Of a stretch of 51,563 nt of DNA, positions 13,344 to 43,237 are shown piece by piece. Numbering within the stretch: position 1 is the first letter of the stretch; each line of letters starts with the position of its first letter. The notes under the pieces are model-generated. The model saw only the letters and a program-made list of their open reading frames with translations. It made no database searches and had not been told where the DNA came from. Source of the stretch: a virus; the UHGV virus genome UHGV-0189653; one strand, written 5' to 3'. The position numbers and the translations under genes are program-made.

Positions 13344-16300
13344 GTGAATATGGCAGTAAAGATTTCAGGTGTACTGAAAGACGGCACAGGAAAACCGGTA
13401 CAGAACTGCACAATCCAGCTGAAAGCAAAACGTAACAGCACCACGGTGGTGGTGAACACGCTGGCCTCAGAAAATCCGGATGAAGCCGGGCGTTACAGCA
13501 TGGACGTTGAGTACGGTCAGTACAGCGTTATTCTGTTGGTGGAAGGATTCCCGCCGTCACATGCCGGGACCATCACCGTGTATGAAGATTCTCAACCCGG
13601 TACGCTGAATGATTTTCTCGGTGCCATGACGGAGGATGATGCCCGTCCGGAGGCACTGCGCCGTTTTGAACTGATGGTGGAAGAGGTGGCGCGTAACGCG
13701 TCCGCGGTGGCACAGAACACGGCAGCCGCGAAGAAGTCAGCCAGTGATGCCAGCACATCAGCCCGTGAGGCGGCAACCCATGCGGCTGATGCTGCGGACT
13801 CAGCACGCGCAGCCAGCACGTCAGCCGGACAGGCCGCGTCGTCGGCTCAGTCAGCGTCTTCCAGCGCAGGAACGGCATCAACAAAGGCCACTGAAGCATC
13901 AAAAAGTGCTGCCGCTGCAGAGTCCTCAAAAAGCGCGGCGGCCACCAGTGCCGGTGCGGCGAAAACGTCAGAAACGAATGCTTCAGCGTCACAACAATCA
14001 GCAGCCACATCTGCATCCACCGCGACCACGAAGGCATCAGAAGCTGCGACCTCGGCCCGGGATGCGGCGGCCTCAAAAGAGGCGGCAAAATCATCAGAAA
14101 CGAGCGCAGCCTCGAGCGCCGGCAGTGCAGCTTCCTCGGCAACGGCGGCAGGAAATTCCGCGAAGGCCGCAAAAACGTCTGAGACGAATGCGGATAACAG
14201 CGCACAGGCGGCAGCAGACTCACAAACTGCATCGGCAAACTCCGCGACATCAGCCAAAAAATCAGAAACCAACGCGAAAAATAGTGAGGCAGCAGCAAAG
14301 GTCAGCGAAACCAACGCTAAAGCGTCAGAGAACAAGGCGAAAGAATATCTCGACAAGGTCGGGGGACTCGTCAGCCCGATGACGCAATACGATTGGCCCG
14401 TTGTTACTGGTAGTGAGTCTTTTTACATAAAGATCGCGAAACTTTCCGATCCTGGAAGCAACAATTGCCATGTAACGCTAATGGTTACTAATGCCGGTAA
14501 CTACGGCTCCCCTTACGGAAACATTGACTTTATCGAGATCTCGGCGCGCGGTCTGCCTTCTTTGCTTAGTGCGGATAATGTTTCTCGTCATCTGAGTATA
14601 CGCCGCTTAGGGTCAACCGGGCTGACCGATAACAACCAGATGCGTTACGGCCTGGTTAAAGGTGACGGCTTTATTGAGGTTTGGGCATTCCAGGGTGCGT
14701 TTATTAACGACGCAAAGGTTGCGGTGCTGGCGCAGACAACACTAAACACAGAATTATACATTCCAGACGGATTTGTTAAGCAAACCGCCGCGCCTTCTGG
14801 ATATATTGAAGGCAACGTTGTAAGGATTTACGACCAGGTAAACAAGCCGACTAAAGCAGATTTGGGTCTTTCTAATGCTATGCTTACAGGCGCTTTCGGT
14901 CTTGGCGGTAGCGGGATATCAACAAACGGCAAGATGAGCGATGTAGAGATCTTAAAAGCTCTGCGTGACAAAGGTGGTCATTTCTGGCGCGGTGATAAGC
15001 CGACCGGAAGCACGGCGACCATTTATAGCCACGGTTCTGGTATATTCTCGCGGTGCGGCGATACGTGGTCAGCGATCAATATCGACTACTCAACCGCGAA
15101 GATTAAGATCTATGCCGGCAACGATGCCCGGCTTAACAACGGGACTTTTAGCGTCAATGAGCTATACGGAACCAAAAACAAGCCGTCGAAATCGGATGTT
15201 GGACTCGGCAACGTAACTAACGATGCGCAGGTGAAAAAATCCGGCGATGTTATGTCAGGTGATCTTGATATATTGAAAGAAACGCCGTCTATCAGGCTAA
15301 AATCAGCAAAAGGAACCGCTCATCTGTGGTTCATGAACAACGACGGCGAGCGCGGCGTTGTTTGGGCGCCTGTAAATACTGATACGCTTGGCGAAGTTCG
15401 CATCAGGGCTAAAAACGCAAAAGGTGAATCAAGTGGTGATTTTGTTGTTCGCCACGACGGGAGGGTTGATGCCCGCGATCTAAAAGTAACGTACAAAATC
15501 AGTGGAGCCACCGCAGAGCTTGCAAACACATCAACTGACGTGGCTAATACTACGTTAAAAATCAGCGGATCACAGCATACGCCTTTAGTTTTAACTCGCA
15601 GTGGAGAAATTAAAAACTTATCCATTGGGTTTAAGGTTGATGATGTTGAACAAAAATATCTCGGCGTATACGGTGACGGTAATTTGTATTTCGGTAATTC
15701 CTCTGACCACTCAAAAAACAGCAGAGTAATTACACAAGCAATACTCGATAGCGGGGTAACGGTAGGCGGTAAAACAACATTTTCTGACCTTGCCACATTT
15801 AACGCTGGCATATCTGGCGCAATCGAACCTGAAAGCATTTCTGAAGTGACCGTTGATCTTAATGATCTGACCATTAAAGGCACAGATAAAGGATCGGTTA
15901 AATACTATCAGTGCAGAACTGCCGGAGGTGGTGCGAATATTACCAATAAGCCTGACGGCGTAGGCGGTAACTTTTTGCTTCGTGTAGAGTCGATTCGTAA
16001 GATTAGGGATTCAGATTATGCGAACATGCAAACGCTGATTGGCAGCGACACAAAACGTATATACGTTCGCTTTGTTGTTAATGGAAACTGGACAGCGTGG
16101 AGTCAGGTTGTTGTTTCCGGATGGAATCAGGATGTAACCGTCAGGTCGTTAACCTCGACGACTCCATCAAAATTAGGTGGCGGGCGTGTTGACGTGCTTG
16201 GAAGTACGTCAGATTACAACAGCATGAATTGTGCTGTGCGTGGTGTTGATAACACTGGAACCAATTCGGCGTGGTCGGTAGGTACATCAGAAAGCACAGG

Positions 16301-17108
16301 CAAAATGTTGTTCCTGAAAAACCACAGAAGCAGCGCTCAAGTGCTGTTAAATGGCGATGATGGCGCGGTTCAACTCAAAACAGGTGCTGTTAACGGGGCT
16401 ACAGCGCAGGCGCTCACTATCAACAGGAATGAGGTTAACTCAACCGTTGATTTAACCCTTACAAAGCAATCAGGGACTGGTAATCGTTTTGTTTTACAGA
16501 ACTCAGGTAATGCAGAACTACCGTTTTCTGTCAGGGTGTGGGGTTCCAGTACTCGTCAAAACGTTTTTGAGGTTGGAACGTCTGCTGCGTATCTGTTTTA
16601 TGCGCAAAAAACAACAGACGGGCAAAACCTTACTGTAAACGGAAGTGTTAACTGCACCACACTGAATCAGTCATCAGACCGCAGACTGAAAGAAAATATC
16701 GAGATTATCGATAACGCGACTGACGCAATCCGCAAAATTAATGGATACACGTACACGCTCAAGGAGAATGGGGCACATTGCGCCGGGGTTATAGCCCAGG
16801 AAGTTGAAGAGGCCATCCCGGAGGCCGTTGGTTCATTCATCCATTACGGTGAAGAGTTGCAAGGCCCGACCGTTGACGGCAACGAGCTACGCGAAGAAAC
16901 GCGCTATCTTAATGTTGACTACGCCGCCGTGACGGGTTTACTTGTTCAGGTCGCCCGTGAAACAGATGATCGCGTTACCGCGCTGGAAGAGGAAAACACA
17001 ACGCTACGTGAAAATCTGGCAACAGCAGACACCCGGATCAGCACTCTGGAAAATCAGGTAAGCGAACTGGTTGCACTTGTCCGGCAGTTAACAGGAAGCG
17101 AACATTGA
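13344..17108 (+). CDS. stf: side tail fibre protein with C-terminal peptidase S74-type intramolecular chaperone domain
   Basis: 1254-aa ORF; lambda Stf-like N-terminus (MAVKISGVLKDGTGKPVQNCTIQL); Ala/Ser-rich SETNA repeats; C-terminal SDRRLKENI motif (16671-16700) plus coiled coil, the signature of self-cleaving chaperone domains. Confidence 0.85.
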   Translation: MNMAVKISGVLKDGTGKPVQNCTIQLKAKRNSTTVVVNTLASENPDEAGRYSMDVEYGQYSVILLVEGFPPSHAGTITVYEDSQPGTLNDFLGAMTEDDARPEALRRFELMVEEVARNASAVAQNTAAAKKSASDASTSAREAATHAADAADSARAASTSAGQAASSAQSASSSAGTASTKATEASKSAAAAESSKSAAATSAGAAKTSETNASASQQSAATSASTATTKASEAATSARDAAASKEAAKSSETSAASSAGSAASSATAAGNSAKAAKTSETNADNSAQAAADSQTASANSATSAKKSETNAKNSEAAAKVSETNAKASENKAKEYLDKVGGLVSPMTQYDWPVVTGSESFYIKIAKLSDPGSNNCHVTLMVTNAGNYGSPYGNIDFIEISARGLPSLLSADNVSRHLSIRRLGSTGLTDNNQMRYGLVKGDGFIEVWAFQGAFINDAKVAVLAQTTLNTELYIPDGFVKQTAAPSGYIEGNVVRIYDQVNKPTKADLGLSNAMLTGAFGLGGSGISTNGKMSDVEILKALRDKGGHFWRGDKPTGSTATIYSHGSGIFSRCGDTWSAINIDYSTAKIKIYAGNDARLNNGTFSVNELYGTKNKPSKSDVGLGNVTNDAQVKKSGDVMSGDLDILKETPSIRLKSAKGTAHLWFMNNDGERGVVWAPVNTDTLGEVRIRAKNAKGESSGDFVVRHDGRVDARDLKVTYKISGATAELANTSTDVANTTLKISGSQHTPLVLTRSGEIKNLSIGFKVDDVEQKYLGVYGDGNLYFGNSSDHSKNSRVITQAILDSGVTVGGKTTFSDLATFNAGISGAIEPESISEVTVDLNDLTIKGTDKGSVKYYQCRTAGGGANITNKPDGVGGNFLLRVESIRKIRDSDYANMQTLIGSDTKRIYVRFVVNGNWTAWSQVVVSGWNQDVTVRSLTSTTPSKLGGGRVDVLGSTSDYNSMNCAVRGVDNTGTNSAWSVGTSESTGKMLFLKNHRSSAQVLLNGDDGAVQLKTGAVNGATAQALTINRNEVNSTVDLTLTKQSGTGNRFVLQNSGNAELPFSVRVWGSSTRQNVFEVGTSAAYLFYAQKTTDGQNLTVNGSVNCTTLNQSSDRRLKENIEIIDNATDAIRKINGYTYTLKENGAHCAGVIAQEVEEAIPEAVGSFIHYGEELQGPTVDGNELREETRYLNVDYAAVTGLLVQVARETDDRVTALEEENTTLRENLATADTRISTLENQVSELVALVRQLTGSEH
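13700..14340 (+). repeat. Ala/Ser-rich low-complexity coding repeats within stf (SETNA-type)
   Basis: Reiterated KTSETNA / KSSETSA / KVSETNAKA units visible in the translation; causes spurious ORFs in other frames. Confidence 0.6.
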
Positions 17109-17291
17109 TATCCTTCAAGCTCTGAAGGAGGCTGTTCCCGGTACGTTCAGACTGTTGTTGAGCTGGAAATCGCAACGGAGGAAGAGAAAGCGTTACTGGC
17201 CGCATGGAAAAAGTATCGGGTGTTGCTGAACCGTGTTGATACATCAACTGCACCTGATATTGAATGGCCTGCTGTCCCTGTTATGGAGTAA
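17109..17291 (+). pseudogene. tfa: 3-prime remnant of a tail fibre assembly (tfa) gene
   Basis: Directly after the stf stop, in frame and without a start codon, the sequence encodes ...[43 protein letters not shown], the conserved C-terminal tail of Tfa proteins. Confidence 0.5.
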
Positions 17292-17504
17292 TCGTTTTGT
17301 GATATACCGCAGACACGTTGTATGCAGGAACGTGCTGCGGCTGGCTGATGCACTTTCGAGAGTGCATGTATTGAATTATTTCCAGCTATTATCGATTTTA
17401 CGTATTTTTTGCATGAGAGAATTTGTACCTCCTCCCAACAACGACCTTCCATGACTTTCCGGACTTTTGTGGGCCAGCGGACGATGCTGTCCTCGGATGT
17501 TGTG

Positions 17505-18362
17505 CTAATTGGGTGATGACAAATCCTGTCTATGAGCGTTTCCCTTTGTGCGTGCGTTGAAGCTGATAACGGTAAACGTCATGATGAACACAACCGCGAA
17601 TAAGACGACAATCGTCGGAGCTGGTGCGCTGTCGATAAAAAAGGACAGCCAGACACCAGTCATTGAGACTATTACCGATATGCCAGTCGCCAGTAGGAGC
17701 GCAATATGAAAGCGTTGTGTCAGGAGTACCGCAATGGCGCCAGGCGCAATGAGCAGAGAAATGGAGAGAATGATACCTACTGCTTTCAGCGTTGCCACAA
17801 TGGTCAGGGAAACCATGCACAGCAGCCCATAATGCAGCCATCTCGTATGCAAACCGCTTACCTGCGCCTGTTGATAATCAAAGCTGAACAGCAAAAAATC
17901 CCGCCATTTTACGCTAATAACAAGTGTAACCAGCCCGGCAATAATCACCGTCTGGATTATATCGCCGATGGTTACCCCGAGCATGTTGCCGAAAAGAATA
18001 TGGTCAAGATGTACGTCTGGTTTGACTGCAATATACAAGATCAGACCTGCGGCAAACATGCCAGAAAAAACAATCCCCATCACTGTATCTTGCTTGATTC
18101 GGCTGTTGTCTTTCAGGTATCCCGTCGCCACCGCGCAGAATACTCCGGCGATAAATGCCCCTGTAGCCAGAGGTAACCCCAGAATCCAGGCAAGCACGAT
18201 GCCAGGAAAAACCGCATGACTCATCGCGTCACCCATCAGTGCCCAACCTTTCAGGACCAGAAAGACCGACAGCAGCGCACAGGGTATGGAAACTACCAGT
18301 GAAATCAGCAGTGCGTGACTCATAAAGGTAAACTGCAGTGGCTCCAGTAATAATGCCATCAT
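17505..18362 (-). CDS. sitD: Mn/Fe ABC transporter permease SitD
   Basis: 285-aa polytopic membrane protein, ABC-3 family, last gene of a four-gene minus-strand operon with overlapping junctions. Confidence 0.85.
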   Translation of the reverse strand: MMALLLEPLQFTFMSHALLISLVVSIPCALLSVFLVLKGWALMGDAMSHAVFPGIVLAWILGLPLATGAFIAGVFCAVATGYLKDNSRIKQDTVMGIVFSGMFAAGLILYIAVKPDVHLDHILFGNMLGVTIGDIIQTVIIAGLVTLVISVKWRDFLLFSFDYQQAQVSGLHTRWLHYGLLCMVSLTIVATLKAVGIILSISLLIAPGAIAVLLTQRFHIALLLATGISVIVSMTGVWLSFFIDSAPAPTIVVLFAVVFIMTFTVISFNARTKGNAHRQDLSSPN

Positions 18363-19216
18363 GAGCGATCCTCCAGCGCTTTATGCGCACGCCGACGATT
18401 TGCCAAAAGCCCATGGGTGGGCGCAAATACAAATGCTAAAAGAAACAGCAGTGTCTGCGCTACCACGATGATTCCACCTGTCGCGCCGTCCAGAAAGTAA
18501 CTGACCCACGCGCCGAGGAAACTGGTTACACTGCCAATAGTTACAGCAATTATGAGCAGGCGGGGAAAACGATCGGTTAACAACCATGCTGTTGCACCGG
18601 GAGTCACCACCAGACAGATCACCAGAAAGGCACCAACCGTTTGCAGCGCCGCAACGGTCGAAACCGACAGCAGGGTGAAGAAGAGGATTTTTAATCTGCC
18701 CGGATGCAATCCAATAGCACGGGCGTGATTCTCGTCGAAAAAGGTCACCATAAGATCTTTCCATTTGAAAAAAAGCACGATGATCGAGAGAATGCCAATG
18801 ATAGTGAGTTGCAGGATATCCGCCGGATCGATTGCCAGAATATTGCCCAATACGATGGTCTGAATGTTCACGGATGTCGGGTTCAATGACACCATAAACA
18901 GCCCCAGGCCAAAAAAGGAGGAGAAGATCAGGCCGATGATGGCATCTTCTTTTAAGCGAGTGCGTTGGTTAAGAAACAGCATGCTGCCCGCTGCCAGTCC
19001 GCCGGAAAAGAAGGCTCCCAGAGAAAACGGAAGCCCCAGCATATATGCTCCCGCAACACCCGGGACAATAGAGTGCGACAGCGCATCGCCAATCAGCGAC
19101 CAGCCTTTTAGCATCAGATAGCATGACAGGAAAGCGCAGAGACCGCCAACCATCGCCGAGACCCACATCGCATTGAGCATATATTCATAGCTGAAGGGTT
19201 CCAGTAGCACGTTCAT
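18359..19216 (-). CDS. sitC: Mn/Fe ABC transporter permease SitC
   Basis: 285-aa ABC-3 permease paralogue; 4-nt overlap with sitD and sitB. Confidence 0.85.
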
Positions 19217-20040
19217 CTTGCTTCCCTCTGCACCGCTGACGGTCGATGTGCCACAAAAGGGCGTTCATCGTCAGTAATAATGCTTTCTTCCGAGCCGTTA
19301 AGTGTGACATGGCGCAGTACGCCGCTAAAAGCCAGCTCCAGGTTCTCGGCTGTAAAAGTGGTGTCTGTCGGCCCGCTTGCCAGGACGGTGTTTTTGACCA
19401 TGACCGTATAATCGCAAAATGTCGTGACTGAGCCGAGATTGTGCGTTGAGACAAGCATCGTCTTGCCTTCCGCGCGTAACTCCCTCAACAGGCTGATGAT
19501 TTTCGCTTCGGTTTTCACATCAACGCCGGTAAAAGGTTCATCCAGCAGGATCACATCACCCTGCTGTGCAATCGCTCTCGCCAGAAAGACGCGTTTCTTT
19601 TGTCCACCGGAAAGCTCGCCGATTTGTCGATGGCGAAAATCCACCATATCGACACGTTCCAGCGCATCGGTGACAATCTGACGATCCCTCTTTTTGGCTA
19701 TACGCAACATACCCATGTGCCCATAGCGGCCCATCATCACCACATCTTCCACTAGTACAGGAAATGACCAGTCAACCTCTTCTGACTGAGGGACGTAGGC
19801 AACCAGGTTTTTCTGTAGCGCCTGTCGCGTGGGAATACCCAGAACAGATATCTTTCCGCTGGTCAGACGCACAAATCCCATAATCGCTTTAAACAACGTC
19901 GATTTTCCGGAACCGTTTACCCCAACCAGAGCGGCAATAGATCCACTTGGTACTGTGAAGGATGCATCGCGCAGTGCTGTGTGCCCGTTACGCCAGGTGA
20001 CAGTAACATCATTAACGACAATGCCCGCAGATTGCATCAT
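19213..20040 (-). CDS. sitB: Mn/Fe ABC transporter ATP-binding protein SitB
   Basis: 275-aa ORF with Walker [13 protein letters not shown] signature LSGGQ and Walker B ILLDEP. Confidence 0.9.
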
Positions 20041-20954
20041 TATTTCTCCCTTTTCCCGGCTTTAATTCCCTGTACCAGCGTACTGGTAGTAACCTTCAGA
20101 AGGTCGATATACGTAGGTACCGGGCCGTTTTCTGTGCTCAGGGAATCGACATAGAGTACACCGCCGTAGTGCGCGCCGGTTTCACGCGCAACCTGACGCG
20201 CTGGTTTATCGGAAATCGTACTCTCGCTAAAGACTGCCGGGATATGATTTTTCTTCACCATATCAACAACCTTACGTACCTGCTGCGGCGTGCCTTGTTG
20301 ATCGGCATTAATCGGCCACAGATAAAGCTCTTTTAGCCCCAAATCGCGTGCGAGATAAGAAAAAGCCCCTTCACTGGTGGCCATCCATCGCTGATTCTCA
20401 GGGAGTTCAGCAATCTGCTTACGCAGGGGGGCAAGGGTTTGGGTAATCTTGGCTTTATAAGTATCGGCATTACGTTGGTAGGTTTGTGCATTTGCCGGAT
20501 CGTATTTTATCAACGCATCACGAATATTATCGACGTAAATCAGAGCATTATCTGGCGACATCCAGGCATGGGGGTTAGGTTTGCCCTCATAGGGGCCTTC
20601 AGTGATCCCTACTGGCGTCACACCCGAAGAGACAATTACTTCTGGAACCCCATTAAGATGCTGGTAAAAGCGTTGGAACCACAATTCCAGATTCATACCA
20701 TTGGCGAGAATCAGTTGTGCCCCCTGCGCACGTTTAATATCGCCAGGGGTAGGCTGATACTCATGAATTTCTGCACCGGGCTTGGTTATGGATGAGACTT
20801 CTGCAGCATCTCCAGCCACGTTTTTGGCCATATCTGCGATGATGGTAAATGTTGTAATGACCTTGAATTTTTCAGTTGCACTCGCCTGAAATGCGATCGA
20901 GCAGGTGAGGGCGAGGCACCCCAAGAGCATGGTTACTTTTTTTATTGAGTACAT
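20040..20954 (-). CDS. sitA: periplasmic Mn/Fe-binding protein SitA
   Basis: 304-aa ORF with signal peptide ([18 protein letters not shown]), cluster-9 substrate-binding protein; first gene of operon. Confidence 0.9.
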
Positions 20955-20986
20955 AATTTAGTACCTATAGTGAGCAAAATTAGAAC

Positions 20987-21008
20987 AAACATAGCAACGG
21001 CTATGTTT
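20987..21008. promoter_or_regulatory. MntR box upstream of sitA
   Basis: Perfect inverted repeat AAACATAGC-aacg-GCTATGTTT, matching the MntR operator consensus as I recall it. Confidence 0.6.
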
Positions 21009-21031
21009 TATAGCATAAGCAATACAAAATG

Positions 21032-21050
21032 AAAATGATTATCATTAGCA
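21032..21050. promoter_or_regulatory. Fur box-like site upstream of sitA
   Basis: gaAAATGATtATCATTAgC matches ~15/19 of Fur consensus GATAATGATAATCATTATC. Confidence 0.5.
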
Positions 21051-21159
21051 ATTTTAGATCCGAACCGGGATTAGGTTGTTTCCTGCTGGCGACGTGGTAC
21101 TGAGGAAAAAAGTAGGGCACCTATTAGGCTTTGAAATGACTTGATGAGGAAAATTGTTG

Positions 21160-21410
21160 ATGGCAAAAATGGGGCAAAGCGCTGCAAAAGGGGCAAAAAA
21201 GGGGCAAAAAAAGAGTGGGTTATCGTAGCTTATTGTTGTCGCTGATGATATTTAACACATTGAAAAATAAGTAAAATACTTATGAGTCAGAGAGTTGTGA
21301 TTTTTGCCCTTACTTGTTCAGGTTGTATTGTTCTTTCTTTGTAATTTGTTGATTTTCTTGCATTATTTCAGTTCTCTGGTACTAAATGGGGCAAATTGGG
21401 GGCAAACTTT
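21160..21410. other. attP: phage attachment site region (attP-like) with integrase arm-type repeats
   Basis: Direct repeats of (T/G)GGGCAAA at 21162-21210 (four to five copies), inverted copy TTTTGCCC at 21302-21309, two more direct copies at 21387-21407 abutting the int 3-prime end; core not delimited. Confidence 0.5.
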
Positions 21411-21414
21411 GCAA

Positions 21415-22650
21415 CTATGATAACCGCGCATTCAACATGGCTATCTGTTCGTCGTTCATGTCATCAATCCACATACCGTAAATTTCATACACCATCTGCG
21501 CAGTTTCATGCCCCATTTGGCTGGCTATAAATGCCGGGTTCGCTCCTGCCGTCAACAGCCAGCAGGCAAAAGTATGCCGCGTATGGTACGGATTACGGCG
21601 GCGAATACCAGCACGTTTTACTGCTGCATTCCACCTTGCCCCCAAACTGCTTACCGAGTAATAAGGTTTTTGTTTTCCGTTACACACCCTGGGCATGAAA
21701 ACAAAATGCAGTTTTTGCTTTTCGGTTCTGCCGTACTCCCGATGATAAAAGGTGATTTCGCTTTTGCGATGATGCCCGGTCAGTTTGTATTGCTCCTTCA
21801 GTGCTTCAAGAGCAGGCTGCAGTAGTGTTACTGTCCGGATCCCGGCATTTGTTTTTGGGGGACCGAACATATCAAGTATCGTCAGGTTTCTTCTGACATT
21901 CACTATTCCCTTTTCGAGATCCACATCCTCCCACGCCAGAGCTGCCAGTTCCCCGTGACGAAGTCCTGAGTAAACTGCAAATTTCCACATGTTCTGGCTC
22001 TGTCCTTTTTCACTTTCCATTAATGCATTGAATTCTGTTTTAGATAACGGATCAGGCTTTATTCTGTTTCGCTGTAATTTTTTTACTCCTTCAAATGGTT
22101 TGGTTGATATAAATCCCGACTGATACGCAAAACGTAACAGCGAACAGAGCAGGGCGATATAGTTATCAACTGTGCGCACGGTTCTTCCTTTTTTGTTGGA
22201 TCTTGGATTATCCAGGTAAAGCGTTTCTCCATGCAGCAGTTCATTCCGGTAGTTTAAGATATCGCTATAACGAATATGTGATATCAGGGTACTTTCACAA
22301 ATTATTATTCTGAGTGTTTTTAATTGTGATTTCGTTTTCTTCATTGTGTTTGTTGTTAACTCTGTCTCTTTAATTTTTGTCCAGATATCACAAAGCTCTC
22401 CGAACGTTTTTATGACTCTCGTTGTCACCATTTTTGCCCCAGTGCTGGACTGGGGAAAACGTCTTAAATACTCAAATTCACCGGAGTTTATTTCATGAAC
22501 TATCAGCGCTCTTAAATTTCCGGCCTTTTTAATATTACTGTTTGTAATCTCCCAGCCTTTTAATGTTTCCCGACATCGTTTTCCTCGAAACATGAACCAG
22601 ATGCGAATGTATCTACCTCTAATCTCGACACCTGTTGGTAATTTAGACAT
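21415..22650 (-). CDS. intR: tyrosine integrase (Rac IntR-like)
   Basis: 411-aa ORF, N-terminus MSKLPTGVEIRGRYIRIWFMFRGKRCRETL, C-terminal catalytic R..HxxR..Y region; adjacent to att repeats. Confidence 0.95.
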   Translation of the reverse strand: MSKLPTGVEIRGRYIRIWFMFRGKRCRETLKGWEITNSNIKKAGNLRALIVHEINSGEFEYLRRFPQSSTGAKMVTTRVIKTFGELCDIWTKIKETELTTNTMKKTKSQLKTLRIIICESTLISHIRYSDILNYRNELLHGETLYLDNPRSNKKGRTVRTVDNYIALLCSLLRFAYQSGFISTKPFEGVKKLQRNRIKPDPLSKTEFNALMESEKGQSQNMWKFAVYSGLRHGELAALAWEDVDLEKGIVNVRRNLTILDMFGPPKTNAGIRTVTLLQPALEALKEQYKLTGHHRKSEITFYHREYGRTEKQKLHFVFMPRVCNGKQKPYYSVSSLGARWNAAVKRAGIRRRNPYHTRHTFACWLLTAGANPAFIASQMGHETAQMVYEIYGMWIDDMNDEQIAMLNARLS

Positions 22651-22651
22651 A

Positions 22652-22867
22652 TCATGAGTCTTTGATAAACTGATTTATCTTTGGATAGTTGTACCAGATA
22701 ATCCCTCGTTTGCTGTCTGGCTTACCTAAAGGAGATACTCGTTTGAAGTGGAAGCCCTCCACCCAACAGTTCTGGCGGTATGCTTCAATTTGTCTGGCCC
22801 CCAGACCAGTGCGAAGCATCAGGCCGTATTCAACCATCCACTCTTCATTAAAGATTACTTGTGCCAT
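22652..22867 (-). CDS. ydaQ: excisionase-like protein (YdaQ/Xis)
   Basis: 71-aa product [16 protein letters not shown]... immediately upstream of int. Confidence 0.75.
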
Positions 22868-22966
22868 CGCATCACCTCTGGCAGGCGCCAATGTTAGACT
22901 GAAATTGACGCCCGATGTTGATTATTAATAATCAGCTATGAAGTTTTAATTTGAATACAATGCAAT

Positions 22967-23155
22967 TCACGAGGACTGAAGTTTCTCGCAATTAAAATTT
23001 ATCAGTTTTACTTTCTGCTCTCTGGAAACGCCTGCTTCTTTTTTACCTGAGAGCATTTTTTCGCATTCTGATTTCGTTAGTTTAGATTTTGAATATCTTG
23101 TCCAGTTAGTAGGAGTGCCACCTTCCTTTTCAATAGTGGCGGTAATTTTATACAT
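22967..23155 (-). CDS. ydaC: YdaC-like protein, function unknown
   Basis: Start MYKITATIEKEGG overlaps the lar stop (translational coupling); Rac order. Confidence 0.55.
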   Translation of the reverse strand: MYKITATIEKEGGTPTNWTRYSKSKLTKSECEKMLSGKKEAGVSREQKVKLINFNCEKLQSS

Positions 23156-23342
23156 GAACACCTCCGTTATTATTTCCAGTGGTTCGTTTATTCCATCTTT
23201 CGAGTGCTTCTTTTTCACTTCCACCATAACCGGTTCGGGATTCGCATCCGTTACACTTCGCTCGGTAATATCCTGAAATGACTTTCACCGTTACTGATGG
23301 ACAACCACAAAATGGACATGGTTTAACATTGTCATATCTCAT
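23148..23342 (-). CDS. ralR: restriction alleviation protein Lar (RalR, type I TA toxin DNase)
   Basis: 64-aa product MRYDNVKPCPFCGCPSVTVKVISGYYRAKCNGCESRTGYGG... with CxxC...CxxC zinc ribbon. Confidence 0.85.
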   Translation of the reverse strand: MRYDNVKPCPFCGCPSVTVKVISGYYRAKCNGCESRTGYGGSEKEALERWNKRTTGNNNGGVHV

Positions 23343-23398
23343 AATTTTTCTCATAAAAAATATTTCAAGTTGGCGGTGCATTACACCGCCAGGCTGAA

Positions 23399-24208
23399 TT
23401 ATTCCTCTGAATTATCGATTACACTGTATTCCCCGGTTAATACAGAGGAATCTGCAGGATCGATTGTCAGTGGTTCCTTTTCATCCATTGATACTGCACG
23501 CTGGATCTCAATTGATACGGGCAGATATTTGAACAGGCGACGAATAGCCGTTTTCTTTGCCATTTCTTCCCAGTGAGTTACCCACGGCCCGTTATTACCA
23601 GCTTTACTCAGGCTGCGCACCAGCTCAATCTGTTTGCGCGTCATAACTTCAAACTGAGTACCTCCGTCTTTCAGTCTTGCGACAGCATAGACGTGGGTAA
23701 CCGGGGCATCTTCGTTTTCTCCCGGGCGGTGTATTAACTTTTCATCAAGGCCAAATTCGAAGCTAAACTCGTCACCTTCACGGACAACACGGGCTGACAG
23801 GCTGGCGATTTGACCAGAACGGCGAGCCAGATCAATCATGCCGCGATAGCCAATGATTAGCTGAACGTTCTTTTTACCGCTCTTTTCGTTTTTATTACCA
23901 AAAGGCAGTAAATATGCATGACCGAGGGCGCTACCTGGCTCAAGTCCGAGCTGTGAACACTGTACGATCGCACTGACAAAACTCATAGTGTCACAGTTTC
24001 CTAACGCCGGAACTTTACGAATTTCTGTGGTGGCGATACGGATCATACGTTCAACCGTCATATGGCGTGGAAGAGCTGCTGCCAGTTGCTCTTTCATTGA
24101 TGGCTGGTTAATAAAACTAATCACGTCGCTATTTTTAACTGCTGCTGGTGCACGGTTTCCCTGAGTTTTTTGCAGATCGGCTTTTGCGATTGGTGGTTGC
24201 TTAGTCAT
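23399..24208 (-). CDS. recT: recombinase RecT (single-strand annealing protein)
   Basis: 269-aa product starting [16 protein letters not shown]; start overlaps recE stop. Confidence 0.95.
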
Positions 24209-26801
24209 TTGCATATTCCTTAGCCCAGCGGGGCAGTGATAATGTCTTAATAGCTGGCCATTCATCGGTATTCAGGCTGTCAGACAGGGTTCGCAGATTG
24301 CGGTGATATTCCTGTTGACCTGCCAGTTTTGCTTCTTCGCCCATCATGAAAATTTCAACCGGATAACGTCCGCATTCAATAGTTGTGCTGGCAACCAGAA
24401 AAACGAAAGTTGGCTGCACTCCAAACTGTGCTTCATAACCGTCACTGTAGAATGCATCCTGAACGTGATAGCGGTAGTCGTAATAAGCGGTTTTGAATCG
24501 TTGAATATCCGCCGTAGTTTTCACGTCCATGATCCAGTGAAATTCAGGGATAATTTTGTCCGGACGGCACCGACACAAAATTCCTGTTTCAGGATCTTCC
24601 CAGTAAATTGATGATTCAGCGTGTCCGGCGCTTTCAACAAGCCATTGCCCCAGCGGCAAAGCCATAACGCTTTGATACATGAGTTCAATTTTCCGGCCTT
24701 CTTCCGCAGTGATAACCGTTTTTCCTGTGCTTGCGCATTCCATCAGAAACGCTTTCTCTTCTTCTTTTCCGGCGTTTGTACGGCGGTTAAATTCAGGTGC
24801 TACGATAAAGCGGTTACTGAATTCTTCCGGTTCAAGTACCCGGCAGTGGAAAGCAGTTCCTAAATCGAGCGTTTTTGTCTTTGTGGTGTCCACGGGGGCA
24901 TTTTTACGCCACAAATATAGTGCCGGAGTATCAGCAATGTCATCGAGCTGAGACTTACTGATACCGGGACCCGCGTGGTAATTCTCATTCGAAATTCCGT
25001 AATAAATACCTGGCTCTATGTCTTCTACGATTACGGGATCTGCGACTTCGCCAGTTTCATCACTGCAATCGCGATGCGGATCGCTGCCAGCATTCTCATT
25101 GTGCGGATGTTCAGCGCCTTCCATTTCCTCCGGATCATTTTCCTTAGCTTCAACCTGACTCTCTTCATCGAATGTTTCCTGGTATGTTGCGTCGCCCATC
25201 ACCGCACCACAGTCAGGGCAGTTATCCCCGCCAGTCTGGCCGCAGGCATTGCAGGCTATTTCCGGTTCCTGTTGCACTACTGGCTCAGGTTGATTCATAT
25301 CCGGGCTGGTTTTTTCCGTTTCTGGCTGGTTCTGGTACACACAATCGCGAGTCTGGATCCCCTTTACCCATTTCGGATCGTTCGGGTCGCTAATTCCGTC
25401 AACAAATTCACCACGTGATGCAGCAAGCAATTTATCGGCATCGACAGGATTTTTTGATGGAATGTTTTTCCGGGCTTCATGGAGTTCTGCCCGCAGTTCC
25501 TGATATTTCGCATCAACAGAATTTACCTGTGACTGAGCATCCAGCGGCTGCGTGTCCTGATGATGTTCAGTTGCGTCCGGTTCCATTGTTTCAGCCTCTC
25601 CCTGTTCAACTGCCGTTGTTCCAGATGGTTGCGGTTTTTCTTCATCATCCTGTTTTCCTTCTTCTGTTACTCGCTGCGGCATCGGGGCAGAGGAGCGACC
25701 GCAGGCAATATCCACGATTTCCGGATCAGGGTTGGCATGATCGGTTTCAGTCAGTACTTTGTTCAGATATTCAGTGACGTGCGCGGGGATGACCTCGATC
25801 CCAATTGGTGCTTCTTTTACGGACGCAACCACGATGGCGCGGGAATAATCCAGCCCGCCAGGCATGGTGATGAATTTGTCGCGGAAAACAGAAAAGGGCG
25901 GTTTATTTTCAGCGATAATTTCCTCAATGCGTTTAGCGTGTGCCGGATGAAGGTTATAGATGTCCAGATCCATTGAACGGGCCAGTACGCCAGTGGCTAC
26001 GTCGCGCGCCAGTGACGTCAGATCGTGTACGAAACCTTCGCCGCGATCGGTGAGGTTTCCGCCGCCAGCATTAGCACCGGAAGCCGTGCGAGTGATGTGT
26101 GAAACACGATTACCCTTCATCCACTCTTTTGTCAGCAGTCCTCGATCGGTGTAGTCAGCGTTCAGGTATGCTTCGAAAAAAGCAGTTATCAGTCCCAGGT
26201 TTGAATTACCAGGATTAGGGAAAACTTTGTCAGTGTCACGAACCAGTTTGTGGAGTTCGCGAATTTCCAGCGGGTCGAGCAGGCTGGTTTTGTGGGAAAC
26301 AGCCAGGGCAGTAACAGCCGGTAGTTCTTCAGCCCGAGCAATGTGTAATGCCTGGAGTCCGTCGCGTGAAACGTGCGTTACCGGTTTTTCGCTGCCGTGT
26401 TGAGCAAGCCAACGAATGGGCAGTTCCTGGCCAGAAATTGGGAGTAGCATATTCTCCTCAATCTCAGTCATGTCTTCGCCGTTGACGTTGGTATTGCCTT
26501 GATAGTGAGCGTTGTCTGGTGCTGCTCCCGGTTTTAGTTCCCATGTCATGGAGTCTTTGCTGAGTTGATAGCGTTCACTCCAGGTAAAATCGATCTCACC
26601 TTCAGCGGGCAGGTCATTAACGACAGGAAAATTCGTGGCAACAGCTTTAAAATAGCTGCTCAGTTTTTTACCTGACTTAACGATCAGGTAGTCCAGAGTG
26701 GCACAGGTCGATTCAAAATCGTTGCTTGCCCACAGGACGACGTCAGGTTCACCGGATGATTTTTTCGCTTTCCGTAACAGGAAGAGTGGTTTTGTGCTCA
26801 T
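24201..26801 (-). CDS. recE: exodeoxyribonuclease VIII RecE
   Basis: 866-aa [35 protein letters not shown]..., C-terminal nuclease domain. Confidence 0.95.
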
Positions 26802-26902
26802 TGTTTTTTAACCTCAACTCAGATTAAAATTCGTTTTGTTCAGTGAATGATCTTGCCGGATACACACTGTTCATAGCCTGCGCCATACGCAGGCTATTTC
26901 TT

Positions 26903-27178
26903 TCAGATTTCACCTTTTAATTTCATTGCAATTAGAGTTGCCAGAAATTCGGCTTTTTTTTCTGCGGGCAGATTCTTTCCGATATGCACCAGGCACATTT
27001 TTTTGACACCTTCATCAAGTGTTTTTACGTTGCCTGATGGACCATCGATATCAACCACAGTGAATGGGGTTTCTTTATTTTCTGTTTTAATTACGTAGCC
27101 AATGCGCTTTCCTTCCAGATTCACCTCGTGAACAATGTCATCGGTAGTTACAACAGTGGCTTCATAATTGGTAATCAT
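26903..27178 (-). CDS. racC: RacC protein
   Basis: 91-aa product MITNYEATVVTTDDIVHEVNLEGKRIGYVIK... Confidence 0.8.
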   Translation of the reverse strand: MITNYEATVVTTDDIVHEVNLEGKRIGYVIKTENKETPFTVVDIDGPSGNVKTLDEGVKKMCLVHIGKNLPAEKKAEFLATLIAMKLKGEI

Positions 27179-27252
27179 GTTTTTCTCCTTAATTAAGGTT
27201 GAGCGAATACCTGCCATTTCTGGCATAAATTCAGTTTCGAATAGTCAATTAA

Positions 27253-27423
27253 TTAAAGTTCATGTGCCATCTGGTCTTTTTCGGCACAAGATTCACTGCA
27301 ATATTTTCTCGGTTCGTCTTTTGATAAAATCCCGTGCATGAAGTGAAGCATTCTTTCAATAGCTTTGCTTTCTTCAACGTCTTTTTTGCAAAGGTGGTAA
27401 GCACATTTTATTTTCTTAGTCAT
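27253..27423 (-). CDS. ydaE: YdaE, small Cys-rich metal-binding protein
   Basis: 56-aa ORF found by manual translation ([56 protein letters not shown]); below the ORF-track size cut-off. Confidence 0.65.
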   Translation of the reverse strand: MTKKIKCAYHLCKKDVEESKAIERMLHFMHGILSKDEPRKYCSESCAEKDQMAHEL

Positions 27424-27644
27424 CACCATGACTCCGCCTTTACAGGTAAACCATCACGACCGAGGAAGACTTTAATCATGCGGTCAGTAATGCATGTTTT
27501 TGTGGTCAGGTTACGAATATATAGTTTTCGCTTTTTAATATTGTTTGCCGAGGCAATATATGTCCGGCCTTCATGAAGAACATAATCGCCAGGAGTCACA
27601 CACTGACGTGGTATTTCATCAGTTCCGAAGTGATGTGCAATCAT
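27423..27644 (-). CDS. kilR: KilR, FtsZ-targeting cell division inhibitor
   Basis: 73-aa product [38 protein letters not shown]...; stop overlaps ydaE start. Confidence 0.85.
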
Positions 27645-28085
27645 AATTATCTCCATTTTTACAAATGAACTTTGTTGATGCGGTGCCTGGTGCCTCCAGG
27701 TGACTGCAACCAGTTAACAATTACAGTCGGCTTTCCCACCCAAACCAATAAGGACTAACATGACTTTTAACTGTGCCACGTGCGCTTAGCCGCATTCACC
27801 GCATCACAAAATTCACTTTAAAAAGGGCGGACATCAGCCGAACTTCAAGAAAAAAAATGATGCCGCCAGGACTACACACAGCAATGTCGTTATTTACAAC
27901 CGGAGGCGCACTCCCACCATTTAAATTTAACAGACAAGACCGACTCTTTATGGATATCGGAAATGCGCCTTCGTGTTGTGCCCGGTTTTATTTCACCACC
28001 TCCGGGCTTCGGTGGTCTCGGCTATACCCCTACAGCGAGAGCTTGTGTTAACATTTCAATACCCTTACAGTTGAGAGTTATTGAT

Positions 28086-28574
28086 ATGTTGGATGTATTT
28101 ACTCCATTGTTGAAACTTTTTGCTAACGAGCCACTCGAAAGACTTATGTATACGATTATCATTTTTGGTCTCACTCTCTGGCTGATACCGAAAGAGTTTA
28201 CTGTCGCATTCAATGCTTATACTGAAATACCTTGGCTCTTTCAGATTATCGTTTTTGCCTTTTCTTTCGTGGTCGCCATTTCCTTCTCAAGATTGCGAGC
28301 ACATATTCAAAAGCATTATTCATTACTACCAGAGCAACGAGTATTGCTTCGTTTATCTGAGAAAGAAATCGCTGTATTTAAAGATTTCCTTAAAACAGGA
28401 AATCTTATTATCACTTCTCCTTGCCGTAACCCGGTTATGAAAAAATTAGAACGGAAGGGCATCATTCAACATCAGAGTGATAGCGCAAACTGTTCTTATT
28501 ATCTCGTCACCGAAAAATACTCCCATTTTATGAAGTTATTCTGGAACAGCAGGAGTAGACGTTTTAATCGTTAG
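28086..28574 (+). CDS. sieB: superinfection exclusion protein SieB
   Basis: 162-aa membrane protein starting MLDVFTPLLKLFANEPLE with two hydrophobic segments; plus strand opposite the early-left operon. Confidence 0.8.
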   Translation: MLDVFTPLLKLFANEPLERLMYTIIIFGLTLWLIPKEFTVAFNAYTEIPWLFQIIVFAFSFVVAISFSRLRAHIQKHYSLLPEQRVLLRLSEKEIAVFKDFLKTGNLIITSPCRNPVMKKLERKGIIQHQSDSANCSYYLVTEKYSHFMKLFWNSRSRRFNR

Positions 28575-28726
28575 CTTACTGTGTGCTTCTCCAACCATCG
28601 GCGCGCACCAGTTTCGGTTTTAAATGTTTTGCTTTTGGTATACGTCATGGCAGTGAACGTTCCATCCTGGTTGGGGAACACGCCGCACACCAGGGATTCG
28701 TTGTTGCCGAGGTTGATTTTTTGCAT
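28571..28726 (-). CDS. ydaF: YdaF small protein
   Basis: 51-aa ORF by manual translation (MQKINLGNNESLVCGVFPNQDGTFTAMTYTKSKTFKTETGARRWLEKHTVS); convergent 4-nt overlap with sieB. Confidence 0.6.
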   Translation of the reverse strand: MQKINLGNNESLVCGVFPNQDGTFTAMTYTKSKTFKTETGARRWLEKHTVS

Positions 28727-34924: not shown

Positions 34925-35446
34925 TGAAAATTCCTCAAGTTGGAGAGTTCTGGAACATTAAGGCGAGGTGGCAGTAATGCACCATCTGTAATCTTTTGAT
35001 ACTGACGTAATCGGGCCTGATGTGCAACGCCTTGCAAGTATGTAACTCATTGAAAACGATCATTTTTATCTATTGACATCAAATGGCAAACTGTCATTGT
35101 GCGGCTATGGCAAGTGGCAAATGCTTATAAATCATATGGATATAAATAGTACAGAAAGAGTTGTTTTCTCTAGGATATGAGTATACGCCCAATGCTGATT
35201 GGTTGAATTTTGTTCTTGTTTTAAAGGGTAAGAGTTTAAAGTGTTGGCAGTGATGTATTGGATAGTTAGAATTGCTGTGGGTGCTTGAGGCTATCTGCCT
35301 CGGGCATGAACACCAAAGGTAGATAGAGAAAAGCCCCAGTTAACATTACGCGTCCTGCAAGACGTTTAACATTAATCTGAGGCCATATCTATGCGACACA
35401 TAGAGATTAGCCTCTTACGGACCGAAAGGTCAAGGAGAAGCAGGCT

Positions 35447-35572
35447 ATGAAGCAGCAAAAGGCGATGTTAATCGCCCTGATCGTCATCTGTTTAACCGTC
35501 ATAGTGACGGCACTGGTAACGAGGAAAGACCTCTGCGAGGTACGAATCCGAACTGGCAGACGGAGGCTCTGA
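35447..35572 (+). CDS. hok: Hok-family type I toxin (HokD/RelF-like), C-terminally altered
   Basis: ORF MKQQKAMLIALIVICLTVIVTALVTRKDLCEVRIRTG then RRRL*; leader 35270-35446 carries hok-mRNA-like elements (GCTTGAGGCTATCTGCCTC; TTAGCCTCTTAC...AAGGAGAAG) and a short mok-like ORF ending at the hok ATG. Confidence 0.6.
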   Translation: MKQQKAMLIALIVICLTVIVTALVTRKDLCEVRIRTGRRRL

Positions 35573-40713: not shown

Positions 40714-40850
40714 AATCTTAACTACAATATGATTCATTTTGATGATTGTTTCATAAGGAACAGTGAAGTAAGATCTAAGAGGAGTTAAATTTTATACAGT
40801 ATAATCATAATATTGCAGCAAGGTGGTTATAATTGAAAGAATATTTAGAT

Positions 40851-42308
40851 ATGAATACATCTCATGTAAGAGTTGTTACTCATATGTGTGGGTTCCTGGT
40901 TTGGCTCTATAGTCTTTCAATGTTGCCACCAATGGTTGTAGCATTGTTTTATAAAGAAAAAAGCCTGTTCGTTTTCTTTATAACTTTCGTTATATTTTTT
41001 TGCATTGGTGGCGGAGCGTGGTATACAACTAAGAAATCTGGCATTCAATTACGTACCCGTGATGGGTTTATTATAATTGTAATGTTTTGGATTTTGTTTT
41101 CTGTTATTAGTGCATTCCCTTTATGGATTGACTCAGAACTTAATTTAACGTTCATTGATGCTCTGTTTGAAGGGGTTTCTGGAATAACAACAACAGGAGC
41201 AACTGTAATTGATGATGTTAGTTCATTACCTCGGGCATATTTGTACTATCGGTCACAGTTAAATTTTATAGGTGGTTTAGGAGTTATTGTTCTGGCGGTT
41301 GCTGTATTGCCATTATTGGGTATTGGTGGTGCAAAGCTTTATCAGTCAGAAATGCCGGGGCCATTTAAGGATGACAAACTCACTCCCCGCCTGGCCGATA
41401 CGTCACGGACACTGTGGATAACTTATTCTTTATTAGGTATTGCTTGTATTGTCTGTTATAGACTTGCAGGAATGCCTTTGTTTGATGCTATTTGTCACGG
41501 GATTTCCACAGTTTCGCTTGGTGGTTTCTCAACTCATAGCGAGAGTATCGGATATTTTAATAACTATTTGGTTGAGCTGGTGGCTGGTTCTTTTTCCCTG
41601 CTATCGGCTTTCAACTTCACTCTTTGGTATATTGTTATTAGCAGGAAAACGATAAAACCTTTAATCAGAGATATTGAACTTCGTTTCTTTCTGTTAATAG
41701 CCTTAGGGGTGATCATTGTTACCTCTTTCCAGGTCTGGCATATAGGTATGTATGACTTGCATGGAAGTTTTATTCATTCGTTTTTTCTTGCCAGCTCCAT
41801 GCTCACTGATAATGGTTTAGCTACGCAGGATTATGCAAGTTGGCCCACGCACACGATAGTGTTTTTGCTGTTGTCAAGTTTCTTTGGGGGATGTATAGGT
41901 TCAACTTGTGGTGGAATTAAGTCACTTCGATTTCTTATACTTTTCAAACAAAGCAAACACGAGATAAATCAGCTTTCTCATCCCAGAGCGTTGTTGAGTG
42001 TAAATGTAGGAGGGAAGATAGTTACAGATCGTGTAATGAGGTCTGTATGGAGTTTCTTTTTTCTTTATACTCTCTTCACGGTGTTTTTTATACTGGTGTT
42101 AAATGGTATGGGATATGATTTTCTTACATCATTTGCAACAGTGGCTGCATGTATTAATAATATGGGATTAGGTTTTGGGGCTACTGCATCGTCATTCGGA
42201 GTGCTTAATGACATTGCAAAATGTTTAATGTGCATAGCTATGATTCTTGGTCGCCTTGAAATTTATCCTGTTATTATATTGTTTTCAGGTTTTTTTTGGC
42301 GCTCCTAA
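40851..42308 (+). CDS. trkG: TrkH-family potassium uptake protein TrkG
   Basis: 485-aa polytopic membrane protein from ATG 40851 (MNTSHVRVVTHMCGFLVW...); AT-rich gene and flanks. Confidence 0.85.
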   Translation: MNTSHVRVVTHMCGFLVWLYSLSMLPPMVVALFYKEKSLFVFFITFVIFFCIGGGAWYTTKKSGIQLRTRDGFIIIVMFWILFSVISAFPLWIDSELNLTFIDALFEGVSGITTTGATVIDDVSSLPRAYLYYRSQLNFIGGLGVIVLAVAVLPLLGIGGAKLYQSEMPGPFKDDKLTPRLADTSRTLWITYSLLGIACIVCYRLAGMPLFDAICHGISTVSLGGFSTHSESIGYFNNYLVELVAGSFSLLSAFNFTLWYIVISRKTIKPLIRDIELRFFLLIALGVIIVTSFQVWHIGMYDLHGSFIHSFFLASSMLTDNGLATQDYASWPTHTIVFLLLSSFFGGCIGSTCGGIKSLRFLILFKQSKHEINQLSHPRALLSVNVGGKIVTDRVMRSVWSFFFLYTLFTVFFILVLNGMGYDFLTSFATVAACINNMGLGFGATASSFGVLNDIAKCLMCIAMILGRLEIYPVIILFSGFFWRS

Positions 42309-42445: not shown

Positions 42446-43237
42446 ATGAGCGAGAAATTAAAGATAGTCTATCGCCCATTACAAGAATTGTCACCGTATG
42501 CGCACAACGCCAGGACGCACAGTACTGAGCAGGTGGCACAACTGGTAGAAAGTATTAAGCAATTCGGCTGGACTAATCCGGTGCTGATTGACGAAAAGGG
42601 CGAAATTATTGCGGGTCACGGTCGTGTTATGGCGGCTGAAATGCTCAAAATGGATTCTGTTCCGGTCATTGTTCTGTCTGGCCTGACGGATGAGCAGAAA
42701 AAGGCGTACCGCCTGGCAGATAATCGCCTGCCGATGAATGCTGGCTGGGATGAAGATCTGTTGCGGATGGAGCTGTCGGACCTAATCAATGCTGATTTTG
42801 ATGTCTCCCTGACAGGCTTCATCCCGACAGAAATTGATGAACTGTTGACGGATGTTTTGCCCGGTACAGGAAATGAGGAGGAGCCGTATACGACGAAAAT
42901 TGATACGCCTGTTTATGAGCCGTCGGGCGGTAAACCGGATATCAGTGAACTGTACGACGATACGAAAACTCAGGAGCTGATCAGCCGGATACGTTCGGCG
43001 TCCCTTGAGCCTGATATTGAGAAATTCCTCCTGTGTGCGGCAGAACGTCACACGGTGTTTAATTTCAGCAGAATTGCGGACTATTACGCTCACGCCCCCT
43101 CTGAAATTCAGTGTTTTTTCGAGGAGTCGGCGCTGGTGATCATTGATTATCAGCAGGCTATTGAAAATGGATTTGTCCGGATGACGCAGCGCATGGTGGA
43201 GATCATGCATGGTGGTGAGGAGGAGGAATATGCGTGA
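42446..43237 (+). CDS. ynaK: ParB-like nuclease domain protein (full-length YnaK homologue)
   Basis: 263-aa ORF; N-terminal ParB/Srx-type motif (KGEIIAGHGRVMAA); acidic C-terminus. Confidence 0.7.
   Translation: MSEKLKIVYRPLQELSPYAHNARTHSTEQVAQLVESIKQFGWTNPVLIDEKGEIIAGHGRVMAAEMLKMDSVPVIVLSGLTDEQKKAYRLADNRLPMNAGWDEDLLRMELSDLINADFDVSLTGFIPTEIDELLTDVLPGTGNEEEPYTTKIDTPVYEPSGGKPDISELYDDTKTQELISRIRSASLEPDIEKFLLCAAERHTVFNFSRIADYYAHAPSEIQCFFEESALVIIDYQQAIENGFVRMTQRMVEIMHGGEEEEYA

Follow-up and report, generated by a model that had tools for sequence, protein, structure and literature searches.

The 51,563-nucleotide virus genome UHGV-0189653, referred to below at its full length as the window, carries at positions 17505 to 21060 the genes sitA, sitB, sitC, and sitD of a manganese and iron importer of the ATP-binding cassette (ABC) type. 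The question raised by this locus is whether these genes are genuine cargo of the phage, transferable by lysogeny and wired to the metal regulators of the host, or whether their presence has a different explanation, such as a defective phage, adjoining chromosomal DNA, a function in the lytic cycle, or operators that are mere chance matches. The evidence assembled here makes it very probable that sitABCD is lysogenic-conversion cargo (a "moron") of a Rac-family temperate phage, which would integrate by means of its integrase IntR into the 5' end of the host gene ttcA, and that the cargo provides Mn2+/Fe2+ import controlled by Fur and MntR. The carriage of sitABCD by phages, including the Rac-type arrangement found here, is common and already published, and no new biology is involved; what the window adds is one more complete excised example in which the phage attachment site attP is cleanly defined.

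The preliminary description of this DNA had claimed a complete sitABCD operon, and this was borne out. The four open reading frames are intact, with zero internal stops, and their lengths equal those of the SitABCD proteins annotated by RefSeq in a near-identical prophage; the frames overlap by 1 to 4 nucleotides and follow the order binding protein, ATPase, and two permeases. The products belong to the Pfam families listed in Table 1, and SitB additionally scores 590.6 bits against the NCBIfam equivalog NF011630 ("manganese/iron ABC transporter ATP-binding protein"), well above the cutoff of 393, and possesses the Walker A, LSGGQ, Walker B (VILLDE), and H-loop motifs. The best solved relative of SitA is YfeA of Yersinia (E = 3e-124), to which it aligns without gaps (query residues 24 to 297 versus chain residues 36 to 309). 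In this alignment, residues His64, His129, Glu195, and Asp270 of SitA fall on the positions of the YfeA metal site, composed of two histidines, one glutamate, and one aspartate (H76, H141, E207, and D282 of YfeA). The SitABCD proteins are 94 to 99% identical to the copies of phage 21 and of a ColV-type plasmid, and the alignment to the Salmonella proteins that had been suggested as a check gave 67 to 85% identity. Specifically, SitD shares 273 of 285 residues with its counterpart in phage 21 and 191 of 285 with that of Salmonella, the corresponding values for SitC being 282 of 285 and 243 of 286. Judged by these sequence features, the operon is a complete and true sitABCD, encoding an Mn2+/Fe2+ ABC importer of the SitABCD/YfeABCD type with a cluster A-I binding protein. 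SitA would capture Mn2+ or Fe2+ in the periplasm, and SitBCD would import the metal at the cost of ATP; these substrates, as well as repression by Fur and MntR and a benefit for fitness, are to be expected from the published work on Sit in Salmonella, Shigella, and E. coli. A comparison of the guanine-cytosine (GC) content, overall and at third codon positions (GC3), with that of the flanking phage genes had also been suggested and turned out to be uninformative: the cassette had 0.496 and the tail fibre gene 0.502, against 0.475 in the remainder of the window, and GC does not mark the cassette as foreign.

Upstream of sitA, predicted operators of two host metal regulators are present. The palindrome described earlier as a perfect MntR site is indeed exact, and a search of the window tolerating up to 3 mismatches gave no second match, with 0.03 matches expected; the consensus underlying this comparison, known from mntH of E. 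coli and from sit of Salmonella, is AAACATAGC-N4-GCTATGTTT. The Fur-like box stood as well, with 17 of 19 consensus positions matched and likewise 0.03 matches expected in the window, but its position had to be corrected by one base pair (bp), from 21032-21050 to 21031-21049. The spacing from Fur box over 22 nucleotides to the MntR box and over a further 32 nucleotides to the start codon is identical in the window, the near-identical prophage, phage 21, and four contigs of the IMG/VR database, and differs by 2 nucleotides in a plasmid copy. The MntR box is conserved in phage 21, in a ColV-type plasmid, and in the sit promoter of Salmonella pathogenicity island 1 (SPI-1), and both the Fur and the MntR site align with the latter promoter, while the flanks have diverged. 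In Salmonella and Shigella, sitABCD is repressed by MntR and Fur (review PMC3852070; PMC8970401). As the region upstream of sitA carries both a Fur box and an MntR operator, the host repressors would control sit in a lysogen: Fur-Fe2+ and MntR-Mn2+ would repress the operon when metal is plentiful and release it under limitation.

The location of the operon was addressed by defining the attachment sites. The attP core was delimited by a three-way comparison of attL (the ttcA-intR junction), attP (in the window), and attR (the sit-uspF junction). As stated in the preliminary description, sit is flanked by the tail fibre gene and attP, in the manner of cargo in a lambda b region. In lysogens, the match on the sit side of attP ends at position 21356, which is 17 bp past the core, and is followed by uspF-side chromosome, so that sit comes to lie approximately 270 bp inside attR; in E. 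coli 042, the ttcA-intR junction is found at the opposite end of the prophage, approximately 50 kilobases (kb) away. Since sit is on the phage side of attP and the homology to lysogens ends only past the core, the operon is inside the phage and not part of the chromosome, as had been proposed. The attP core itself lies within the phage-borne ttcA fragment, and at attL of a homologous lysogen, full-length ttcA is joined to phage DNA matching the window. Because attP contains the start and first 17 codons of ttcA, integration would exchange the 5' end and promoter of the host gene for phage-supplied ones, a replacement that has been described for Rac (PMC4632033). The xisR gene next to the integrase gene is annotated with a length of 216 nucleotides in two lysogen records. 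Among the seven octamers GGGGCAAA in the window, five flank the core, three of them at 21171-21208 in the P arm and the other two at 21388-21406 in the P' arm. The number of arm sites varies, as a related IMG/VR contig without approximately 31 bp of the P arm (window positions 21174-21204) has one GGGGCAAA where the window has three. From the end of the Fur box to the first arm-type repeat (21162 or 21171, depending on the repeat chosen), the distance is 113 to 122 bp, which is close to the value of about 110 bp given previously for the separation of the sit promoter from the integrase arm sites.

The completeness of the phage was assessed from its relatives. The last and the first base of the window, which begins in tail genes and finishes in head genes, are neighbours in record ON470595 (positions 44604 and 44605), and the window is thus a circular permutation of the whole phage genome; a terminal repeat of up to 1 kb was searched for in the window, and none was found. 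Relatives that are 99.5% identical across most of the second half of the window possess genes for integration, recombination, immunity, replication, antitermination, and lysis as well as for terminase, portal, and coat, and other relatives have annotated genes for the tail, J, Lom, and the tail fibre at corresponding positions. Positions 15696 to 28598 are 100% identical, over 12,903 bp, to the metagenomic IMG/VR contig UViG_3300039370_000009 of 50,494 bp; the source of the window is probably this same viral contig or a nearly identical one. An exact, unsplit attP occurs in six viral contigs of IMG/VR, with sit adjoining in four of the six. Assignment to the Rac family follows from an IntR-type integrase together with XisR, an attP core made of ttcA codons, and the phage-borne replacement of the ttcA 5' end. 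By its gene content and ends, the window represents an apparently complete Rac-family temperate phage in its excised circular form.

Table 1. Features of the sit locus, its control region, and the neighbouring attachment site in UHGV-0189653
Feature	Position	Strand	Description
Side tail fibre gene	13344-17108	plus	1254 amino acids; Pfam phage_tail_N (239 bits) and C-terminal Peptidase_S74 chaperone domain; left edge of the slot
tfa remnant (pseudogene scar)	17157-17291	plus	44 C-terminal codons of a tail fibre assembly gene
Shared sit cassette	17485-21137	minus	from ~20 bp past the sitD stop to ~183 bp upstream of the sitA start
sitD	17505-18362	minus	inner-membrane permease, 285 amino acids; Pfam ABC-3, 255 bits
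sitC	18359-19216	minus	inner-membrane permease, 285 amino acids; Pfam ABC-3, 279 bits
sitB	19213-20040	minus	ATP-binding subunit, 275 amino acids; Pfam ABC_tran
sitA	20040-20954	minus	periplasmic metal-binding protein, 304 amino acids, N-terminal signal-like sequence; Pfam ZnuA, 288 bits
MntR operator (predicted)	20987-21008		exact 9-bp inverted repeat with 4-bp spacer, AAACATAGC-N4-GCTATGTTT, 32 nucleotides upstream of the sitA ATG
Fur box (predicted)	21031-21049	minus	GCTAATGATAATCATTTTC on the sit sense strand; 17/19 to the 19-bp consensus; 22 nucleotides upstream of the MntR operator
P-arm arm-type integrase sites	21162-21210	plus	GGGGCAAA and variants; inverted near-copy at 21301-21309
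Phage-borne ttcA 5' fragment	21309-21362	minus	MQENQQITKKEQYNLNK followed by a stop; start codon and first 17 codons
attP common core	21314-21339		TTGTTCAGGTTGTATTGTTCTTTCTT, 26 bp; sole stretch identical in attL, attP, and attR
P'-arm arm-type site pair	21388-21406	plus	from repeat analysis and octamer count
IntR-type tyrosine integrase	21415-22650	minus	411 amino acids; Pfam Arm-DNA-bind_2 and Phage_integrase; annotated intR at the homologous attL
XisR excisionase	22652-22867	minus	71 amino acids from ATG (mechanical open reading frame to 22891); Pfam DUF1233, putative excisionase

Within this phage, the sit genes would form a cargo block and a self-contained transcription unit; the slot that they fill is variable and is bounded by the side tail fibre gene on one side and by the P arm of attP on the other. 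In the near-identical prophage, the fibre gene at the left edge of the slot carries the annotation of a prophage tail fibre; its region at approximately 13700 to 14400 encodes a long low-complexity segment rich in Ala, Ser, and Thr, which gives rise to long spurious open reading frames on both strands. In E. coli 042 and VTB97432v, the adjoining tfa remnant bears the annotation "tail fiber assembly protein, incomplete, missing N-terminus". As the fibre protein has an S74 self-chaperone domain at its end, the remnant resembles a scar left by recombination. In K-12 Rac, the slot beside the same P arm is occupied by pinR, ynaE (annotated there as ydfK), and ynaM, which indicates a swappable cargo position. 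The presence of sit is polymorphic among related phages, being absent from K-12 Rac and from approximately 30% of infant-gut lambda phages, and sit thus appears dispensable for phage growth. It was also considered whether an aberrant excision event at ttcA had captured sit; this is unsupported, the chromosomal neighbours at that site being uspF and ompN, not sit.

The operon is oriented away from attP and opposite to the late genes. Expression of sit as a unit of its own from an otherwise repressed prophage is supported indirectly by this opposite orientation, by the host-type operators, and by the transcriptome of phage Perceval of strain LF82, in which the sit genes are transcribed 4- to 13-fold over the prophage background in the lysogen (PMC9928086). 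Two results of simple scans weigh against a self-contained, regulated unit: no consensus sigma-70 promoter was detected at 20955-21100 of the minus strand, and no intrinsic terminator was detected after sitD in the scan of 17000 to 21500, where the overall counts of sigma-70 and terminator matches were no higher than in shuffled sequences. As the sigma-70 scan gave no match upstream of sitA, we infer the positions of the -35 and -10 elements; the Fur box would overlap the -35 region (TTGCTA within the box), and the MntR box would lie at or downstream of -10.

Among the other explanations, the least improbable is that the phage is defective, i.e., a cryptic prophage assembled as a circle, whose sit genes would be passed on vertically and not by lysogeny. 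K-12 Rac, with the same integrase and attachment site, is such a defective fossil (PMC4632033), and the closest phage records, including vB_EcoS-666R9, are incomplete sequences from the genomes of clinical isolates. Against this, the relatives carry the full set of modules from integration to coat, tail, and fibre, the unsplit attP corresponds to the excised form, the viral contig with 100% identity over 12.9 kb comes from a metagenome, and Rac-like prophages of O157:H7 have been reported to be infectious (PMC4632033), so that we consider a defective phage unlikely. That sit is host DNA flanking the prophage, or was joined to the phage by a chimeric assembly, could be suspected because a chromosomal "PAI sit" inserted at several different sites has been described (PMC7545054) and because sit occurs on plasmids (at 1093 places). 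Either origin is practically negligible, however, given that the operon is found to the phage side of the attP core, that homology to lysogens runs from the fibre gene through sit to approximately 17 bp past the core before uspF-side DNA begins, that the ttcA-intR junction of E. coli 042 is at the far prophage end, and that four independent viral contigs have sit beside an unsplit attP.

Two further explanations concern the function of the locus. If sit supplied metal during phage replication, it would serve the lytic cycle and not the conversion of the lysogen. Nothing specific speaks for this, although some auxiliary metabolic genes of such a general kind are known from phages (PMC6969025), and we regard it as highly improbable: the operon is oriented against late transcription and has operators for host repressors in place of a phage promoter, the Perceval copy is expressed in uninduced lysogens (PMC9928086), and on plasmids as well as in degraded islands the cassette works without a phage. 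The Fur and MntR boxes, for their part, might be chance matches in AT-rich DNA, with regulation having been lost. The upstream region is AT-rich, and the palindrome was also scored as a terminator-like hairpin by the simple scan, a call that was rejected as an artefact; yet the low number of matches expected for each motif and the conservation of both positions as far as Salmonella, within diverged surroundings, leave hardly any room for coincidence.

The distribution of the cassette is broad. At 97.2% identity, the 3.65-kb cassette occurs in 27 phage records (megablast, at least 80% query coverage), among them phage 21, Perceval, PhiR phages of the ECOR collection, and the Lambda_ev/1H12/4A7 series, the naming of which fits the style of Mathieu et al. 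2020; in more than 20 of the phage records the match has identical limits, query positions 486 and 4138. At the same coverage of at least 80%, it is present in 2301 of 5426 complete E. coli genomes (42%), and in 502 of these 5426 genomes the sit promoter is joined to the P arm and core of the window. The matches at the plasmid places reach position 21167. It has been reported that 70% of infant-gut lambda phages carry sitABCD, and the Fur box was noted in that work (Mathieu et al. 2020, PMC6969025). Carriage by phages explains the spread of a recognised fitness- and virulence-associated metal importer across E. coli lineages, and the cassette arrives pre-wired to the Fur and MntR regulons of the host, as is established in the literature.

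The closest known architecture is that of prophage 042p3 (ROD21) of the enteroaggregative strain E. coli 042, published in 2010 (Chaudhuri et al., PMC2808357), in which ttcA, intR, xisR, ralR, recT, and recE are found at one end and tail fibre, tfa remnant, sitD-C-B-A, uspF, ompN, and nifJ at the other. Compared by architecture, it differs from the window in that it is integrated, with attL and attR split, whereas the window is an excised circle with attP, and in having two fibre genes and small open reading frames. K-12 Rac has the same integration site, a P arm with 97.4% identity over 21161-21356, the intR/xisR/ralR-RalA/recET gene family, and trkG as cargo, but is defective and lacks sit in its slot. 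The lambda-like phages with sit (phage 21, record OL657228; the Lambda_ev/1H12/4A7 series; Perceval) carry the operon in the same orientation and in the equivalent slot following the side tail fibre genes, with identical operator spacing in phage 21, the single copy of this group that was checked. Their homology ends short of the P arm, at window position 21137 or 21089, and their head modules are lambda-like, unlike that of the window with its DUF4055 portal and Mu-F-like head genes; phage 21 moreover has another integrase and attachment site (attP beside an icd fragment) and approximately 2 kb of small genes between sit and attP.

Outside phages, the SPI-1 sitABCD of Salmonella shares the gene order and the succession of Fur box and MntR box, and SitA, SitB, SitC, and SitD are 74, 76, 85, and 67% identical, respectively; it differs in its location, a chromosomal island between ygbA and sprB, and in its diverged operators (TAACATAGC-N4-GCTATATTC). 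For this operon, regulation by Fur and MntR has been demonstrated experimentally (PMC3852070; PMC8970401). Plasmids of the ColV/ColBM type carry intact sit genes with 96.6% nucleotide identity over the cassette, but there the operon is situated close to the aerobactin genes, with IS1 and a remnant of the Tn3 family as its flanks; its Fur box is weaker (15/19), and its MntR repeat has a mismatch in one arm. A ColV-type plasmid shares upstream sequence with the window beyond 21137, the point at which phage 21 diverges, and retains a degraded Rac-type P arm, with the GGGGCAAA repeats deleted, up to the IS1 end. The retained arm hints that plasmid-borne sit may derive from the end of a Rac-type prophage. 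YfeABCD of Yersinia pestis resembles the system of the window in the ungapped alignment of the binding protein and the conserved His/His/Glu/Asp positions and differs in being chromosomal; Yersinia is without MntR, and Fur alone controls YfeABCD (review PMC3852070).

The short distance of approximately 115 bp that separates the Fur box from the first arm-type site, together with the conservation of this junction, gave rise to the idea that the link may be functional: occupancy by Fur or MntR, or transcription of sit, might affect the Int/Xis/IHF complex at attR and tie excision to metal, or the attR complex might modulate sit. The present analysis yielded no support for such coupling, and we consider it very unlikely.

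A few additional features of the phage may be mentioned. A second transporter appears among its cargo, a K+ uptake protein of the TrkH/TrkG family (40833-42308, plus strand; Pfam TrkH, 484 bits), which matches trkG of K-12 Rac and is placed between the lysis and packaging genes. The Rfam and transfer RNA scans detected no RNA family and no transfer RNA within or beside the sit region. Elsewhere, the small RNA RalA (Rfam RF02694, 225 bits; 22971-23149, plus strand), antitoxin of the RalR type I toxin-antitoxin pair, is located just past xis as in Rac, and a sok antitoxin RNA (Rfam RF01794, 101.5 bits; 35279-35449, plus strand) in the early-right region implies a toxin locus of the hok/sok type. 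The head module is not lambda-like, comprising the DUF4055 portal and a coat gene with P22-type annotation. A protein with a ParB N-terminal domain is encoded at 42446-43237 (plus strand), upstream of the terminase genes, and a Mu-F-like head protein at 48119-49234 (plus strand) is annotated in related records as "NAD+--asparagine ADP-ribosyltransferase".

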